Below, piece after piece: positions 2,812-45,295 of a DNA stretch of 64,000 nt. The DNA comes from a virus (Duplodnaviria > Caudoviricetes): positions 71,662 to 135,661 of the IMG/VR virus record IMGVR_UViG_3300017791_000355; one strand, 5' to 3'. Each line of letters opens with the position of its first letter. Positions within the stretch are counted from its first letter, which is position 1. Position numbers and translations under genes: made by a program. The notes beneath the pieces are model-generated. The model saw only the letters and a program-made list of their open reading frames with translations. It searched no databases and was not told the origin of the DNA.

Positions 2812-4435
2812 CGGACCGGCGCGCGGGCGGACCGCGACACTACGGTCACCACTGGTCGTGCCGCGACAAGAAGTGCGAGGGTTGCTGCCTGGTCGTACCG
2901 ATCGGCGACGACATGAAGTGCACGTGTGACCCGTCGGGACGATGTCCGATCGAGCCGGACTGCGATGCCGGATCGTGCACCGTGTCCGAGGTCCTCGAGT
3001 CCGGACACTCGATCCGATGGCCGTCCGGCGCTATCGCGACCACCGCCGGTCCACGCACGCTCGACCTCGAGGAAGAGCACGACGTGGTGAGGAAGTTACT
3101 GCTCGAGCGCGGGATCGACCCGTGTGCGGGGTGCGCGTCGCGCGGCGCGGAGCCGAAGACCGAGTACTGGACGGAGTGTGGTCACGCGGATGCGTCCGCG
3201 AGAGAGTGCTCGTACCAGTCGGAGATCAACGGCGTCGATCGAACCTGTCTCTGCTGCGACTCGTGCGCGCACGAGTGCGCGATGGACGTGTGATGACCGA
3301 CGAGGACAAGGACTTCTGCTTCATGATCATCATCCCGTTCGGCACGTTCGGGGTGTTCCTCTGGTGCACTCTGTACTTCAACGGAGGCTGCTGATGCCCA
3401 GGCACTCTGACTACGGACTCATCACCGACCTCGACTGCTGGATGCACGAGGCGTGGCCGTCGTTCATGGAGACGATGGAGGGACGTTTGTACGGCGAGTC
3501 GGCACTGAACGCCGCGTGGGCATTCTTCAAGGCGGGTTGGCGTGCCCGTGACAAGGACAAACGATGAACCTCGACCTCAACAACCTTCACTGGTACGGCT
3601 GGGCGCTGCTCGCGATCTCGGCTGCAGGCTTCCTCAACGAGGTCGCGGGCGCGATGCGCTACGTGCGTCGCGGCGACGTCGGCGTGAGCTTCCTCGTGCC
3701 CATCTGCGGCCTGACGATCGTGCTGTACATGCTGGTGTCAGCGTGAAGTTCTCGTACGAGGACTTGAAGGCCTGGTGTGTCCGGATCGTCGAGGGCCCCG
3801 GTGGACTCGAGGACTGGCACAAGTACGAGTGCTTCGGCACCGAGCCCACGACCGTCGAGGTCGTCGAGTGGGTCATCCGCTGCCTGGGGAACCCGAAGTG
3901 CGAGGGCAGCTCGCAGGTCCTCGAGGCGATCGCGGACCGTCGCGAGTTCAAGCAGCGAGGTGGGAAGTGATCTGCACCCACGCGCTCGAGACCGTGTGCC
4001 CTCGGACGTCAGACGGTAGGTACGAGTTCAACGTAATTCGTCAGATTTGGGACGGCATCTGGTACCGCGTGATCGAGTTCGGTCACCCGATCAAGCACTG
4101 CATCGCGTGTGGTCTGCTGCACGGTTACCCGTTCGACCCGCAGTCTCTCCCCCAAACCGACGACGGATTGGCCGACGAACTCGCGCTTTGCGAGGAGGCT
4201 CAGTCATGACCGAACCTTTTGCCTACAGCGTCGATGCGAGTTGGTCCAGCGGAACTTCACGTCGCTGGCACGCTGCCCATCCCAACTCGCCGATTTGGAA
4301 TGTACTCGTAGCTGCGTGCAACGAGTCGCTCGTGCTGAACGAGCACGAATACTACGAGGTCCGTGGCGCACCTCTCGGGTCGCTCTGCCGCACAAAGCAG
4401 TGCACGAAGGCGTTCGGGCTCGTGAAGGTGGCCAA

Positions 4436-5209
4436 ATGACCACCATCATCGGCACCTGCGGACCCGCCGGCTCTGGCAAGTCCACGGTCGCGTCTCATCT
4501 CGTCGAACGCTACGGCGCCGGCCGCTACGCGTTCGCGGACCCGCTCAAGCAGCTCTGCATCCGCACCTTGGACTTCGCCCACGAGCAGCTCAACGGTACC
4601 CAGGCCCAGAAAGAGGCGGTCGATCCGCGCTACGGGTTCTCGGCGCGCTGGTTCATCCAGCGCCTGGGCACCGAGGGTGTGCGGACCGTGCTCGGGCCCG
4701 ACTTCTGGTGGCGCTACGCGCTCGCCCGCATCTCCATCGACGCTCCTGATCTCGCCGTCATAGAGGACGTGCGATTCGTCAACGAGGCCGACGGCGTTCG
4801 CGGGACGTGCGGGGACCCGGTCGACGTGGTCGAGATCACCGATGAGCTCGTGACGGAGATTGGCTGGTACACACTGGGCGGACGACGCGCCGGCGACCTG
4901 ACCATGGACGATTTCCTCGACCGCCTGGGTGCAGCATTTCGCTGCACCTTCGGGGGGGAGATCGCCCTCGGTGGTTGGGACGTCGACCTGGGTTACGTCT
5001 GGCGCCTCGAGTCGCCACGCTTCGCGCTGACGTCGGACCCGACTCACGCCTCCGAGGCCGAGTGGTCCAAGTGCGCGTACGATCTCCGGATCGCTCCGCG
5101 CGAGCACGGCCTGGACGCACTGTTCGAGCTCGTAGACCGAGCCGCACACTTCTGTGGGATCCCACGCATCGCCGAGCGTGAGGCTGCACTAGTCGACGAC
5201 GCGGCGTAA
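4436..5209 (+). CDS. Deoxynucleoside monophosphate kinase
   Basis: P-loop GPAGSGKST plus FADPLK, R..Q.LGTE and IEDVRF.NE motifs of phage dNMP kinases. Confidence 0.85.
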   Translation: MTTIIGTCGPAGSGKSTVASHLVERYGAGRYAFADPLKQLCIRTLDFAHEQLNGTQAQKEAVDPRYGFSARWFIQRLGTEGVRTVLGPDFWWRYALARISIDAPDLAVIEDVRFVNEADGVRGTCGDPVDVVEITDELVTEIGWYTLGGRRAGDLTMDDFLDRLGAAFRCTFGGEIALGGWDVDLGYVWRLESPRFALTSDPTHASEAEWSKCAYDLRIAPREHGLDALFELVDRAAHFCGIPRIAEREAALVDDAA

Positions 5210-20639: not shown

Positions 20640-22309
20640 GCCGCCGCCCCCTCGACGATCCACTCGCCAGGCTGGAGCACGTAGTCGATCGGCACCTGGA
20701 CGTGCTCGACGCGAGGACCGCGGGCGACGAAGCACTCGCGAAGCGACGGGATGTACTGGCCGGTCTCACGGTCGACGAAGCCTGGCGCCCTCGGAAAGAG
20801 CTGCACGTAGCCTCTGTACGAGACGCGTCCGTTCTCGAGGAGGACGTTCGACTTCAGGAAGATTCCGACGTCGCGCCACTTCTCGGGAACGCCGAGGCTC
20901 GTCACGCACGTCTCAGCGTGCGGGAACTTCTTCGTGCCGTGCTCGCCGCAGTGCACACACACGCGCCCGGTACGGAGGTACGGCACGTAGTCCTTGAGAA
21001 CCTTGCCGTCTTCCCCGAAGTCACCGTACGACATCAGGAACTCGTCGCCACTCTCGTGGCACGCGTCGGCGCCGAACGAGACGCCACCGCCCTCGGTCCG
21101 CGGCACGTCCTTCGTGAGGAGTAGCCCGGTCCCGTCGCACGTGACCTCGCCTTCCGGTCCCTCGCAACCCTTGAGCTTCACGTTGTGATGAAGGACTCGC
21201 CCCGCGTTCTCGCACGTCGCGCAGGTCGCCACGGTGGGCTCCTTGACCTTCCCACCCGCCTTCCACGGCTGACACCGGCCCTTGCAGTCCGGGCAGCGCA
21301 GCGTGGGCTGCTCATGGTGGGGGACCTTCCCCTCGCCGGCGCAGTGAGGGCAAGGCTCGGTCGACCCGTACTCGACCGCGATCATCTTCTTCAGGATCGC
21401 CTGGCTGACTGAGCCGTCGTCCCGGATGATGCCGGCGTCGATGAACTTGCCGATTGACCCGGCACGCTTCTTCTTGAAGTACGTCTCGATGACGTCGACC
21501 TTCGACTGGTCGACCCACAGGCCGTGCGCGTCGCCGAGCGCGAGGCAGATCGCGGAGTAGGTCTGCGTCGCGACCTCGTGGAGATTCAGGTGCGGACGGC
21601 GGACGAGGCACTGGGAGGAGAAGCGCGTCGAGCCGCAGTCGAGGCACGCGCCCGCGTCGGACCAGTTGTGGCTCGAGGAGACCTTGGGTAGGACCCCGAT
21701 CTGGGCGAGCGTGACCTCGTGGGTGTTCTTGCCGTCGTCGACGGGGTAGTCGCGCGCGGCCTGCGGGAGCTTCTCGAGCGGCCAGTCGTCGAACTCGCCG
21801 TAGCGCAGCTTATACTCATCGTTCGACTTCGCGTCCTGTCGGCCGAGCACGAGGTCCACGACCATGGACAACGAGTACGAGCCGGGCTTGCCGGTCTCGG
21901 GATTCTTCAGCGGTCCGCCGGTGCGCGGATCGCGGCCGAGGGTGCCCTCCGCGATCGCGCAGAGGACTTGGGTGACCAGGGGATCGAACACGCGGCCCTG
22001 CTCGAGCAGCGCGAAGACGTGCGGCCAGATGTCGATCCCGCGTCGCGCGAACTCGTCGGCGATCACCAAGACGTCGAACGCGAGGTTCGCGTTGTTGAGG
22101 ATCGCGCTCGGGTCCTCGAGGACCTGCGCGAAGAGCTCGAGCACGTCGTACTTCGAGAGCAGGGCCCCGACGATGTTCCCCTGGGGATCGAGCCACCCGG
22201 CCGAGCCGAGGACGAGCTTGGGGACGGGGACGCCCTTCTTGATGGCCCAGGTCTCGGTGTCGATCGAGACGGCGGTCTGGGCGAAGGTCTGGAGGCGAGC
22301 GAGCCGCAC
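20636..22309 (-). CDS. DNA polymerase family A, N-terminal part (3'-5' exonuclease and thumb) with Zn-finger insertions
   Basis: ExoI IDTET, ExoII N.AFD and ExoIII Y..DD, then GRVS...Q..PR and LRECFVAR, which normally directly precede motif A. Confidence 0.85.
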   Translation of the reverse strand: MRLARLQTFAQTAVSIDTETWAIKKGVPVPKLVLGSAGWLDPQGNIVGALLSKYDVLELFAQVLEDPSAILNNANLAFDVLVIADEFARRGIDIWPHVFALLEQGRVFDPLVTQVLCAIAEGTLGRDPRTGGPLKNPETGKPGSYSLSMVVDLVLGRQDAKSNDEYKLRYGEFDDWPLEKLPQAARDYPVDDGKNTHEVTLAQIGVLPKVSSSHNWSDAGACLDCGSTRFSSQCLVRRPHLNLHEVATQTYSAICLALGDAHGLWVDQSKVDVIETYFKKKRAGSIGKFIDAGIIRDDGSVSQAILKKMIAVEYGSTEPCPHCAGEGKVPHHEQPTLRCPDCKGRCQPWKAGGKVKEPTVATCATCENAGRVLHHNVKLKGCEGPEGEVTCDGTGLLLTKDVPRTEGGGVSFGADACHESGDEFLMSYGDFGEDGKVLKDYVPYLRTGRVCVHCGEHGTKKFPHAETCVTSLGVPEKWRDVGIFLKSNVLLENGRVSYRGYVQLFPRAPGFVDRETGQYIPSLRECFVARGPRVEHVQVPIDYVLQPGEWIVEGAAA

Positions 22310-22310
22310 T

Positions 22311-22349
22311 GTCCAGGAAGAACGCCTGGACCGGGGTCGGAGCTTCCGT
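22311..22349 (-). promoter_or_regulatory. ECF-type promoter/palindrome upstream of the Pol N-terminal gene
   Basis: GGAAG-N19-GTT with a 21-bp palindrome abutting the GTG start. Confidence 0.65.
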
Positions 22350-22747
22350 CAGATCTCCGGGGTCGGCGCGATTTCTCGGACGTGCTCGGGGATCATGCGA
22401 AGACCCTCCTCGAGCGAATCGACGAAGGACCACGACCCGTGTCCCTCGCACGAGCACCCACCATACTCGGCGTGGATGATTCGTCCATCTGGCAGAACCG
22501 CGACCATGTTCGCGTGGTGGTGACCCCAGCCCTCGGAGTCGTCGTAGTGCTCGTAGAGCAGCGCGTAGCCGCCGTCGAGGGCGGTCTGGAGCGCCTGTTG
22601 GGAGCCGCCCAAGTCATTCGTGATGCATCCGTCGGCGCAGGTCCGGTATTCCTGGGGCATCGCAGTCACCTCGAGCACGAGCTCGCGGACGTCGCGGCCT
22701 TCCTTGAGGGCGTCCAGGAGCACGGAGATGAGGTCGTCGCGCGTCAT
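22349..22747 (-). CDS. Hypothetical protein between duplicated promoters
   Basis: 132 aa ORF with YGGCSC, flanked by near-identical 38-39 bp repeats. Confidence 0.6.
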   Translation of the reverse strand: MTRDDLISVLLDALKEGRDVRELVLEVTAMPQEYRTCADGCITNDLGGSQQALQTALDGGYALLYEHYDDSEGWGHHHANMVAVLPDGRIIHAEYGGCSCEGHGSWSFVDSLEEGLRMIPEHVREIAPTPEI

Positions 22748-22785
22748 CCAGGATAGAACGCCTGGACCTGGGTCGGAGCTTCCGT
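22746..22785 (-). promoter_or_regulatory. Duplicate of the 22311-22349 promoter
   Basis: Differs from that copy by one substitution and one inserted base across 22747-22785. Confidence 0.65.
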
Positions 22786-22793
22786 TCAAATAT

Positions 22794-22899
22794 TGCTCAC
22801 AAGAGCCCTTGTCCTACCTTGCCATGCCTAACCCGGCCTTTGCCCAACTTGTCGTGCCACGCCGTGTCACGCCTAGCCTGACCCGGCCCTTGCCCAACC
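22794..22899 (-). ncRNA. Putative guide-like RNA unit B: about 18 GGY/GAC-NN units plus a 3' hairpin
   Basis: Minus strand reads GGTTG GGCAAG GGCCG GGTCA GGCTA GGCGT GACAC GGCGT GGCAC GACAA GTTG GGCAAA GGCCG GGTTA GGCAT GGCAA GGTAG GACAA GGGCTCTTGTGAGCA. Confidence 0.65.
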
Positions 22900-22915
22900 A
22901 ATTCAAATCAGAGAA

Positions 22916-22990
22916 TGCGCACAAGCGCCCTTGTCGTGCCACGCTCCGCCGCGCCGTGCCACGCCGTGCCACGCCTGGCCTGGCCGAGCC
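22916..22990 (-). ncRNA. Putative guide-like RNA unit A: 12 pentamers, mostly GGC-NN, plus a 3' hairpin
   Basis: Minus strand reads GGCTC GGCCA GGCCA GGCGT GGCAC GGCGT GGCAC GGCGC GGCGG AGCGT GGCAC GACAA GGGCGCTTGTGCGCA. Confidence 0.7.
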
Positions 22991-22996
22991 AAAACT

Positions 22997-23509
22997 CTAC
23001 TTACGTGACGCAGCCACGGGCGTCGAACGCTCACGTGGTCGAGGCTCTGGAATCTTGCGCCGTAGTTCACGATTCACGGCAGACACGACGCGTCCTTGGA
23101 CTTCGAGGTCGCGATCGTGCGCGACGACTTCATCGGACGCGAGTTCAGACCGTGGAACGTCCTGCTTGATGGCGAGCGCTCGACGGAGCTTCCGTCGACC
23201 GTTACGAGATGTCTTGGTGCTGTAGGCGCTGGCGCCGGACGCAGTCAAGAGCATCACCCCGACGTCCGAGTCGATCTTGACGGCGACGTGCATTGGAGGG
23301 TCGCGTCTTAACCACTCGGCTTCGACGAGTCCCTTGAGTTGAAGGCACCTGGTGCTGTACTCAGGCGTGTCACGCGTGACTCGGAACATGCGTTCGATCT
23401 CGTGAACCGCGATATGATCACCTCGCTCGAGTCGAGCGACCCGCTGAGCAGGAGTGATCTCCTCTTCGGTCTCAGGCGTGCTCTCGACGGTCTGCAACTC
23501 GAGATTCAT
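22997..23509 (-). CDS. Accessory protein of the RAMP/pentamer-repeat locus
   Basis: 170 aa. Its ATG overlaps the RAMP gene stop, and it ends 6 nt before repeat unit A. Confidence 0.65.
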   Translation of the reverse strand: MNLELQTVESTPETEEEITPAQRVARLERGDHIAVHEIERMFRVTRDTPEYSTRCLQLKGLVEAEWLRRDPPMHVAVKIDSDVGVMLLTASGASAYSTKTSRNGRRKLRRALAIKQDVPRSELASDEVVAHDRDLEVQGRVVSAVNRELRRKIPEPRPRERSTPVAASRK

Positions 23510-24069
23510 CCGATCACCTCGAACCGACCGAACTTCGGTCGCCAGTCGCCGACCCCGGTAATGCCGGAAGTCTCGACGATGTCGACGAGCTGATCGTCGG
23601 ACTTGATGATGGAAGGATCCCACTGCACGTCGAACGTGCACTCCCACGATGGAAAGATCGGTCGCGCGCGAATGACGCGGTTTTGCTTCACCTTGACCCC
23701 AGCAAGCTTGAGGTAGTTTCCGCTATCCCAGAGTCCTTCGACGGTCTTGGGACCCGGATACTGGAGGGCCCAATCACCCTCGATGATGATCCCACCCTTG
23801 ACTTGCTTGCCCAGCGTGAGCTTCCTGGCTCCCTCTTGAAGGGCTCCCTCGAGGACCTCACCGGGTAAGCAAGGCGCGCCCTTGTTGTTCACGTAGAGTC
23901 CGCCATTCCACTCGCACCGGCGAATCTCCAGCAGATCGGCGTCAGTCTTCTTCTTCTTATCGGTCAACTTCTTGAGCGCTCGCGCCATCTCATTCAGAGG
24001 GTCGGCGAGTTGCCCGTTGTGCATGATGAGAGGGGTGAGGCCGCGAATCGTGAACGTGGTGGTCTTCAT
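23506..24069 (-). CDS. Stand-alone Cas7/RAMP-like protein
   Basis: N-terminal strand TIRGLTPLIMHN, LPGEVLEGAL..GAR, VIRARPIFPSWECTF, and a C-terminal Gly-rich loop GITGVGDWRPKFGRFEV typical of RAMP RRM folds. Confidence 0.75.
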   Translation of the reverse strand: MKTTTFTIRGLTPLIMHNGQLADPLNEMARALKKLTDKKKKTDADLLEIRRCEWNGGLYVNNKGAPCLPGEVLEGALQEGARKLTLGKQVKGGIIIEGDWALQYPGPKTVEGLWDSGNYLKLAGVKVKQNRVIRARPIFPSWECTFDVQWDPSIIKSDDQLVDIVETSGITGVGDWRPKFGRFEVIG

Positions 24070-24128
24070 GTAAGCCTTGGAGCGTTGACGTCTTGGCGTG
24101 ATTGCCGTTGTCGTGCTCGCAAGAAGGG

Positions 24129-24155
24129 AACTCCCTGGACAATGCTCCGCTTTCA
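24129..24155 (-). promoter_or_regulatory. ECF-type promoter for the RAMP operon
   Basis: TGAAA-N19-GTT with GTCCAGGG in the spacer. Confidence 0.6.
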
Positions 24156-24168
24156 AAAATCGACCCAA

Positions 24169-24223
24169 TGCTCACAAGAGCCCATGTCTTGTCCGGACCC
24201 GCCACGCCTAGCGACGTCTCGCC
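24169..24223 (-). ncRNA. Putative guide-like RNA unit C (degenerate pentamers plus the same hairpin)
   Basis: Minus strand reads GGCGA GACGT CGCTA GGCGT GGCGG GTCCG GACAA GACAT GGGCTCTTGTGAGCA. Confidence 0.5.
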
Positions 24224-24522
24224 TAGGCCTGCCGTAAATTCGCGTAGTGCGTCAGGATCTCGGCGTGACAGCGCAACGGCGAGCACCAACACGCGAGGAC
24301 CTTCCCCCGGAGCTCGGGCAGCCGAGCCATCAAATCTGCCCGCGACAGGAGGTAGTCCTCGAACCTCGCAATCGCCTCCTCGCGAGTCGCGACCGAGAAG
24401 TGCGCGAGGGTGCCGTCCAGGGGACGATGTGTGTAGGGGTTGCCCCAGTCCGTCGAACGATCGACGAGTACGTCGTACCTCAGGCCGGACCGGACGTTGA
24501 CGACGAGACGGGTGCGGCTCAC
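24223..24522 (-). CDS. DUF4326-family protein
   Basis: Motifs R.T.WGNP...I..F..YL...L..L.GK.L.CWC.P..CHA.IL. Confidence 0.8.
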   Translation of the reverse strand: MSRTRLVVNVRSGLRYDVLVDRSTDWGNPYTHRPLDGTLAHFSVATREEAIARFEDYLLSRADLMARLPELRGKVLACWCSPLRCHAEILTHYANLRQA

Positions 24523-24857
24523 CGCCACCCCTCCGGCAACGTGCAGTTCTCCGGCGCATCCGCGAACAGCGGCGCTATCTCGTCGTCCTTGTAGCCCGCG
24601 TTTATGCACCCTACCCGACACACGTCGAACGTGATCTCGAGGTTGTTCCGCGCGAACGCCTTGAAGCGCTCCACGGACCGCGCGATGTCCTCGAGCGGCC
24701 GAACCCGGAGCGAGTGGTCCTTCGTCGGGATCGCGTACGACCGACCCTGCGGACCCTCGCCGACGCCGTAGATGGCGCCGTGTTCACGCTTCGCGACAAG
24801 CGCGGACCCCTTGCCATGGCGACCCGCGAGGTTCGAGCCGAAGACAAAGAACCTCAC
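24519..24857 (-). CDS. Phage protein with FVFGSN..G.HG.G.A motif (macrodomain-like family)
   Basis: FVFGSNLAGRHGKGSA, YAIPTK and VGC..AGY motifs. Confidence 0.7.
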   Translation of the reverse strand: MRFFVFGSNLAGRHGKGSALVAKREHGAIYGVGEGPQGRSYAIPTKDHSLRVRPLEDIARSVERFKAFARNNLEITFDVCRVGCINAGYKDDEIAPLFADAPENCTLPEGWR

Positions 24858-43750: not shown

Positions 43751-45295
43751 ATGACCCGACACTTCTTGTCCCTCCTCCTGCTCGCACCTCTCGCGGCGTG
43801 CGCGGCAGACCCCAATTTGTCGACCGACCCCTCGGGAATCGATCCGTACTGCTACCATCCGGCCAACTACGTCAACACGTCTCTGGGACAAAACGGCCTG
43901 GTGCCGTGGATCGAGGGTGTCCTGGGACCTACGGTGGACTCCGGTCCGTCGATCATGGCCGCGATCAACGACGCGAGTGCGAACGGCGGGAAGCTCTGCC
44001 GTCTGCCTAGCGGCACGTTCCTCGTCCAGCGAGCCGGGATCCACACCTACAACAGCAAGGCGGGCATCTCCGCGCACAGGTACGGGATCGTGATCGAGGG
44101 GCAGGGGATGGACGAGACGACGCTCGTCTACGCGCAGGACGCCGAGGCGCGGGCCCTCAAGGGCATCTCCTTCGATCCCGGCTGCGACCACTGCGGGGTC
44201 AAGAACCTGACGATCGACGGTACGCGGCTGCACAACACCGACGCCGGCGAGCAGACGATCGCGATCGACGTCGGTACGAACGTGTGCGCGAACCAGCCGT
44301 GCACCCAGCCGATCCTCGACACCGTCATCGAGAACGTTCGGTTCTTCTGGGCGGGCTCCGCCGGCGAACGCTGGGGCGACTGCATCCGAGTCGCTGGGAA
44401 CTCGGTCGCCTCGCAGTCGCGCAACACGAAGATCCGGAACGTGGAGGGCGTCTCGTGCGGTCGGTCATTCGTCGCGTGGCAGCGCAACGCGAACGCGCTC
44501 GACATCTCAAATTTTTATGTGGATGGCGACGGCGTCAAGGGCACGGTATTCGACGGGGAGGCCACGGGCGCCGAGGACGACACCGGCACGAACGTCGGTC
44601 CAGGCTTCATCTGGTTCAATCGACCGCGAACTACTGCGGACGACAACTTCGTCATCAGCGGCACGAGTCAGAACAACTTCAACGTTCACGACGTGCAAAT
44701 CATCGGCGGCCGCGCCGCGATCACGTGCGTGCGTTGTCGTCGCGCGAGCATCACGAACAACATCCTCGACGCCGAGAACTCTCGCGACACCGTCGCGAAC
44801 ATCGAGCTCGCGAACCTCGCCGAGCAGGCAGACGTCTCGCACAACCAGATTCGCCGGCGGGGTGGGGCGGGGTCGTGCATCCGGTCGCAGCCTCACTCGG
44901 GAATCAGCGCGAACTTGCTGAACGTCGTCGACAACACCTGCATCAACGACACGGACGGTGCGGCGATCCTCCTGGCAGCTCCGCGCTTGTCCAAGGTCGA
45001 GGGCAACCTCCTGCAGGGTAACGCTGGACCGAACTCGATGGGCATCTACGTGACGCCGACCGGCGACCACGTCCGAGGTCTCGGAGTGAACGACAACATC
45101 ATCTCCGGCATGACCTACAGCGCCGTCCGACTATCCGGCACCGGCGGGTTTGGCTTCGTCGCGACGATCGTGGACGGGAACGCTTCCACGAGCAGTGGAG
45201 CGATGCGATGCGAGAATCCTCAGTACAGCCCGGTCGGGGGCATCAAGGTCGGGGACAACAACTGGTCAACACCGTCGGCATGCGTGGCGCCGTGA
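43751..45295 (+). CDS. Lipoprotein with a right-handed beta-helix (pectate lyase/depolymerase-like)
   Basis: Lipobox LAAC; D...I.AAI..A....GG....LPSG.F and I.IEG.G...T start of a beta-helix; many N-x-I repeats. Confidence 0.75.
   Translation: MTRHFLSLLLLAPLAACAADPNLSTDPSGIDPYCYHPANYVNTSLGQNGLVPWIEGVLGPTVDSGPSIMAAINDASANGGKLCRLPSGTFLVQRAGIHTYNSKAGISAHRYGIVIEGQGMDETTLVYAQDAEARALKGISFDPGCDHCGVKNLTIDGTRLHNTDAGEQTIAIDVGTNVCANQPCTQPILDTVIENVRFFWAGSAGERWGDCIRVAGNSVASQSRNTKIRNVEGVSCGRSFVAWQRNANALDISNFYVDGDGVKGTVFDGEATGAEDDTGTNVGPGFIWFNRPRTTADDNFVISGTSQNNFNVHDVQIIGGRAAITCVRCRRASITNNILDAENSRDTVANIELANLAEQADVSHNQIRRRGGAGSCIRSQPHSGISANLLNVVDNTCINDTDGAAILLAAPRLSKVEGNLLQGNAGPNSMGIYVTPTGDHVRGLGVNDNIISGMTYSAVRLSGTGGFGFVATIVDGNASTSSGAMRCENPQYSPVGGIKVGDNNWSTPSACVAP

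Follow-up and report, generated by a model that had tools for sequence, protein, structure and literature searches.

We found that three short hairpins in the genome of an uncultivated phage are very probably the 3' tails of pentamer-repeat vrRNAs belonging to a phage VIPR system. The hairpins lie in a 64-kb stretch of DNA, hereafter the window, which is the final 64 kb of a 135,661-bp IMG/VR record (64% GC, CheckV completeness ~90%). The locus is homologous to VIPR, a system that has already been described, and is thus a new member and not a new kind of system. Its tail is simpler, a hairpin rather than a pseudoknot.

VIPR was first described in two 2026 preprints as an RNA-guided DNA-silencing system (bioRxiv 10.64898/2026.04.26.720920, 10.64898/2026.04.26.720927). 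The main preprint describes Vipr as a small (~20 kDa) ancestral RAMP protein with a single RRM, accompanied by the accessory gene vap; a minimal locus is phage-borne vipr and vap with flanking vrRNA regions (bioRxiv 10.64898/2026.04.26.720920). The published order is vrRNA, vipr, vap, vrRNA array (bioRxiv 10.64898/2026.04.26.720920, 10.64898/2026.04.26.720927), and in Escherichia phage SUSP1 one vrRNA lies upstream of the genes and three lie downstream (bioRxiv 10.64898/2026.04.26.720920). As reported there, vrRNAs are ~100 nt, co-purify with Vipr, and consist of 9-16 YNNGG repeats, in which GGY is conserved and NN is hypervariable, followed by a constant structured 3' tail; dsDNA is recognised via the NN pairs with one base skipped per repeat, and competing phages are repressed (bioRxiv 10.64898/2026.04.26.720920). 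The structural account in the second preprint places one Vipr protomer on each repeat, with a 3' pseudoknot capping the RNA and the R-loop forming from the 3' end; the mature SUSP1 RNA retains the tail, which is resolved in the complex, and a marker like this pseudoknot is described as lacking from the P. fulva complexes (bioRxiv 10.64898/2026.04.26.720927).

The window holds three exact copies of the motif GGGCKCTTGTGMGCA; with up to two mismatches allowed, 0 of 100 shuffles attained the observed count. In the whole 135,661-bp virus record there are likewise three copies, all on the minus strand (22794-22808, 22916-22930 and 24169-24183). Read along that strand, GGGCTCTTGTGAGCA is found at 24183-24169 (unit C) and at 22808-22794 (unit B), and GGGCGCTTGTGCGCA at 22930-22916 (unit A). 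The sole difference between the two forms is the third stem pair, which is G-C in unit A and T-A in the other two, and the 4-bp stem is kept. The original prediction had described three hairpins with a compensatory swap at this pair, each preceded by a GACAA or GACAT pentamer, and we confirmed the coordinates and sequences; the preceding pentamers are GACAA in A and B and GACAA-GACAT in C. Folding energy of a single hairpin is -5.8 or -7.1 kcal/mol (z -2.4 to -3.1). An alternative pairing of the last pentamer (ACAAG) with CUUGU of the loop region is possible, but it is not kept in the homolog alignment. A permissive Rfam scan of the window locus and six related loci returned no known RNA family except a true tRNA in one related locus (L012).

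All genes in this part of the window are on the minus strand. The order is a DUF4326 gene, unit C, a 187-aa gene, a 170-aa gene, unit A, unit B and more genes, with two genes only between the RNA units. We propose the following reading order for the locus, on the minus strand: vrRNA C, vipr, vap, vrRNA A and vrRNA B. The vipr gene (23506..24069, minus) encodes the 187-aa single-domain RAMP protein, assigned to phrog_4652, and overlaps by 4 nt with the vap-like accessory gene (22997..23509, minus; 170 aa).

The three RNA units, all on the minus strand, differ in length and regularity. vrRNA A (22916..22990) has 12 in-register pentamers at 22931-22990 (10 GGC, 1 AGC and 1 GAC) followed by the tail GGGCGCTTGTGCGCA at 22916-22930, and matched model R1 with an E value of 4.4e-6. 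Phase-5 GCC periodicity (GGCNN on the minus strand) was found in the whole genome only at 22851-22968. vrRNA B (22794..22898; model R1 match, E 1e-5) has 18 in-register pentamers at 22809-22898 and the tail GGGCTCTTGTGAGCA at 22794-22808. Within its repeats a 22-nt leader, GTTGGGCAARGGCCGGGTYAGGC, is duplicated internally, and the first half ends in GGCAC-GACAA as in unit A, without a hairpin. Unit B may be two fused guides (10 plus 8 repeats, the first without a tail), a duplication, or a staggered array as in other VIPR types; staggered arrays, and arrays interspersed with hammerheads, are described in the main preprint (bioRxiv 10.64898/2026.04.26.720920).

vrRNA C (24169..24233; model R1 match, E 6.7e-6) lies upstream of vipr and consists of ~10 degenerate pentamers at 24184-24233 (GGC, GCC, GAC, CGC and GTC triplets) and the tail GGGCTCTTGTGAGCA at 24169-24183. 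It is the most degenerate unit, with GG in ~4 of 10 repeats. Its first two pentamers overlap the upstream DUF4326 gene, whose TAG stop (24223-24225) falls inside the second pentamer, and vrRNA region C therefore overlaps coding sequence. The units thus hold 12 (A), ~10 (C) and 18 (B) repeats, compared with the published range of 9-16. Taken together, the window pentamers have G at position 1 in 95%, G at position 2 in 68% and C or T at position 3 in 94%, and the entropy at positions 4 and 5 is 1.84 and 1.95 bits.

Immediately downstream of the VIPR locus we observed a 29-nt direct repeat, GGAAGCTCCGACCC(A/C)GGTCCAGGCGTTCT, on the minus strand at 22755-22783 and 22319-22347; these are the only two copies in the phage. 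Each copy is just upstream of a gene start, and the TCCAGG...CCTGGA hairpin within it abuts or overlaps that gene's start codon. This repeat may be a translational or transcriptional control element.

The protein encoded between units C and A links the locus to VIPR. An AF2 model of the 187-aa protein had a pLDDT of 93.6, and a Foldseek search of the PDB gave 41 matches with E <= 0.001; all those listed are chains of CRISPR type III or type VII effector complexes. We read the top chains as Csm3, Cmr4 and type VII Cas7 subunits (E 6e-6 to 1e-3), and the modelled protein accordingly has a Cas7/Csm3-like RAMP fold. The guess that the neighbouring protein is a RAMP was thus right, as judged by these structural matches to the model. 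The protein is 30% identical to SUSP1 Vipr over 185 of 187 residues (E 1e-32), and both belong to phrog_4652. SUSP1 vipr has one GGTNN array upstream and a small gene and three arrays downstream. The residues that hold GGY in SUSP1 are reported as H17, E71, R138, D177, W178 and R179 (bioRxiv 10.64898/2026.04.26.720927); these align with H17, E71, R136, D175, W176 and R177 of the window protein. The aligned contact residues are invariant or nearly so among 48 homologs. The 187-aa protein has more than 700 homologs.

The 170-aa protein is less clearly placed. Homologs of its gene adjoin vipr homologs in ~40 loci. Its AF2 model had a pLDDT of 91, and the top fold matches were weak ones to winged-helix regulators, none of them significant. 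PHROG and Pfam searches gave no match, a PDB profile search gave no significant match, tblastn against GenBank phages found nothing, and a word-based search with the protein matched only itself. The accessory families named in the main preprint are vap1-6 (bioRxiv 10.64898/2026.04.26.720920). Comparison with SUSP1 vap1 (phrog_5926) gave a BLASTP E value of 5.3 and an hhalign E value of 0.003 at a probability of 10%.

By itself, a lone compensatory swap among three window copies is weak evidence for selection on RNA structure, and its strength comes from homologous loci. A covariance model built from such loci had been proposed as a check, and we built one from a seed of 24 gap-free tails chosen for pairing. 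Searching 429 kb with this model yielded 60 matches, 59 of them on the vipr strand. In the 60-match alignment, which was fitted to the model, 227 of 227 stem cells pair, 49 cells are changed on both sides, and three of the four stem pairs covary by such two-sided changes. Covariation of the hairpin was seen in the seed alignment too. The third pair, at which the window copies differ, is GC in 21 matches, UA in 20, CG in 14 and UG in 1. When the 3' partner was slid, pairing fell to 22-59% compared with 100% in place. The stem and its covariation are therefore present in related loci, as expected if selection acts on the RNA structure. The published covariation figure for the tail is drawn from five tail sequences. 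One extra model match in the window, at 44141-44172 on the plus strand (E 0.014), lies in coding-like sequence without pentamers and was judged to be chance.

Because the model had shaped this alignment and pairing had guided the choice of seed, we ran a separate test in which array ends were set by pentamer phase alone and a GG followed by a perfect 4-bp hairpin was sought within -5 to +20 nt. Such a hairpin was present at 37 of the 44 array ends in 13 close loci, compared with 7.4% of random positions and 0 of 44 ends on the opposite strand. The pentamers themselves show the same strand bias. Across 105 related viral and metagenome loci, spanning 31-68% GC, 322 GG-in-phase pentamer runs were on the vipr strand and 3 on the opposite strand, and 84 of the 105 loci had at least one run. 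In 3,509 pentamers, entropy at positions 4 and 5 is close to the maximum, and G hardly ever occupies position 3. The pentamer preceding the tail differs from this pattern, N4 being A in 50 of 60 and N5 being A or T in 51 of 60; owing to this low variability we count it as part of the constant region. This pentamer, the GG before the stem and the A after it are conserved as one block. That the units are discrete RNAs with a 3' handle and not a microsatellite, as had been predicted, is supported at the sequence level by the stem covariation, the restriction of hairpin-bearing array ends to the gene strand and the VIPR homology.

In the closest loci, whose Vipr proteins are 57-69% identical to that of the window phage, arrays end in the same type of hairpin. 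Among homologs loops range from 3 to 6 nt and stems include CCTC/GAGG and CCCC/GGGG; it is the pairing that is conserved, not the sequence. Both window stem forms, GCTC/GAGC and GCGC/GCGC, are found in one array in L109-L112. We observed the two kinds of tail interleaved at 3589-4123 of L109, 1038-1410 of L110 and 3168-3420 of L112, where the Vipr proteins show 66-69% identity. The arrangement points either to a polymorphism that is maintained or to phages exchanging vrRNA units.

What follows the tail varies in related loci, being a ribosome-binding site in some and tRNA-like minihelices in others. In the latter, each vrRNA tail is followed by an acceptor-like stem and a T-arm with GGTTCGATTCC or GGTTCAATTCC. 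We observed such minihelices at ~3640-3700 of L007, ~4100-4260 of L012 (which also has a full tRNA-His at 4393-4488), ~2300-2340 and ~3140-3180 of L047, and ~3165-3210 of L093. ARAGORN did not call them as tRNAs, and RNase P or Z might use them as processing signals. The word 'tRNA' is absent from the main VIPR preprint (bioRxiv 10.64898/2026.04.26.720920).

These neighbours bear on the likeliest alternative, in which the hairpin would do no more than stop transcription or mark a site for RNase processing between units and would play no part in the mature complex. It would fit the short, A+T-richer spacers after the hairpins, the tail in L111 that runs directly into a ribosome-binding site and start codon, and the minihelices that could recruit RNase P or Z after some tails. 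However, the stem is only 4 bp and is not followed by a T run, and a scan of 22300-24700 found no terminator-like site. The SUSP1 tail is moreover retained in the mature RNA, and the conservation of the GG, the trailing A and the preceding pentamer as one block also argues against a mere stop or cleavage site. We consider this explanation quite unlikely.

Less likely still is a role at the level of DNA, with the element serving as an operator (a short palindrome) or as a sigma-54-like promoter of the form GG-N10-GC for the next unit or gene. TGGGCTCTTGTGAGCA matches GG-N10-GC, and a gene or the next unit lies downstream of the hairpins. However, loops of 3 to 6 nt in homologs alter the GG-GC spacing, the CCTC/GAGG and CCCC/GGGG variants have GG in place of the GC, it is pairing and not sequence that is conserved, and the model matches and array ends show the element to be strictly strand-specific. 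A scan of the locus found no sigma-70-like promoter. The loop-length and stem variants and the scans together led us to discard the sigma-54, sigma-70 and terminator readings. A last reading is chance, or a microsatellite that arose by slippage and whose palindrome is accidental; in its favour, the window itself shows only one compensatory pair among three copies. It has next to no probability, being refuted by the pentamer strand bias, the stem covariation and the array-end enrichment. Against it also stand the failure of shuffles to reach the observed count, the register kept while NN positions vary, and the same architecture beside homologous genes in dozens of unrelated contigs of 31% to 68% GC.

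In many ~40-kb contigs (L008-L022) the vipr homolog is directly downstream of an HNH endonuclease gene, and in L111 it adjoins the large terminase gene. The system is therefore often near the packaging module. Because many homologs adjoin HNH genes, TerS, a pac or cos site and replication iterons were considered, and these were dropped once the strand specificity had become clear, along with the RAMP fold and the match to VIPR.

Reading the hairpins as vrRNA tails, we infer the whole function of the locus. It is only in SUSP1 and P. fulva that transcripts, a complex of RNA with protein, binding to DNA and capping by the tail have been demonstrated. By homology with SUSP1, each pentamer would be bound by one Vipr protomer with GGY buried and NN exposed. 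The NN pairs would then read dsDNA with one base skipped per repeat, and genes of competing phages would be silenced. The tail consists of the last, non-variable pentamer (GRCAA), then GG, the 4-bp stem, the tetraloop and an A. By analogy this tail might cap the RNA, at 15 nt much smaller than the SUSP1 pseudoknot, and the hairpin may also define or protect the RNA 3' end. A broader reading would join these ideas: the minimal 15-nt hairpin would be a distinct tail class that both caps the Vipr filament and sets the 3' end via host RNases, its two stem forms (U-A or G-C at the third pair), found side by side in several phages, would mark guide sets that differ in function, and related clades would have swapped the signal for minihelices processed by RNase P or Z, a route of maturation on which the main VIPR preprint is silent. 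We offer this combination tentatively and think it rather improbable as a whole.

We also searched for targets of the guides. Under the 1-nt skip rule we found no self-target in the phage's own genome, in agreement with the published report for VIPR (bioRxiv 10.64898/2026.04.26.720920). Exact IMG/VR scans with full-length guides A and C, with A[3-11] and with B1 gave no match, and exact-match scans found no natural target at an NN match of at least 80%. A[2-11] in genome_contigs and A[1-9] in IMG/VR each had 1 match, the number expected by chance. Both partial-pattern matches fall in ordinary genes, one for a Bryobacteraceae protease (21 of 24) and one for a phage GH25 endolysin (18 of 24).

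Our analysis re-identified a VIPR locus independently from raw sequence, in an uncultivated 135-kb phage of 64% GC, and extends the comparative evidence for a structured 3' tail to a clade distant from SUSP1. In this clade a bare 4-bp hairpin seems to suffice as a tail, which helps to define a minimal vrRNA for engineering. A pentamer run followed by a GG-hairpin is also a simple signature for annotating vrRNA ends.

Several known systems resemble this locus in part. The binding sites of TRAP (trp RNA-binding attenuation protein) also carry a short conserved triplet every ~5 nt, each bound by one protein subunit. However, TRAP has an unrelated protein fold and neither a guide function nor a 3' hairpin cap, and this analogy, an early idea, was dropped. 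Class 1 CRISPR crRNAs resemble it in that there too a RAMP-fold Cas7 backbone (Csm3/Cmr4) oligomerises on a guide RNA with a variable guide and a constant structured 3' handle, a hairpin derived from the repeat. In contrast to class 1 CRISPR, the window locus has no repeat-spacer array and the 15-nt tail is its only constant element; the periodicity is 5 nt and not 6, the guide is non-contiguous (NN only), and the single small RAMP is phage-encoded. The missing repeat-spacer array, the 5-nt units and the presence of just two genes between the RNA units place the locus outside class 1 CRISPR-Cas.

The closest relative is the SUSP1 VIPR (type II). The window phage differs from it in having C and not T as the Y of GGY, a 15-nt hairpin with a 4-bp stem and tetraloop in place of a ~40-nt pseudoknot, an accessory protein without clear similarity to vap1 (phrog_5926), and 18 repeats in one unit (B). 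Both loci share a homologous Vipr with conserved GGY-contact residues and GGY-NN pentamer RNAs on the gene strand. In both, one unit lies upstream of vipr and an array lies downstream of a small accessory gene, and the repeats end in a constant structured 3' tail that starts with GGG after an A(A/T) dinucleotide.
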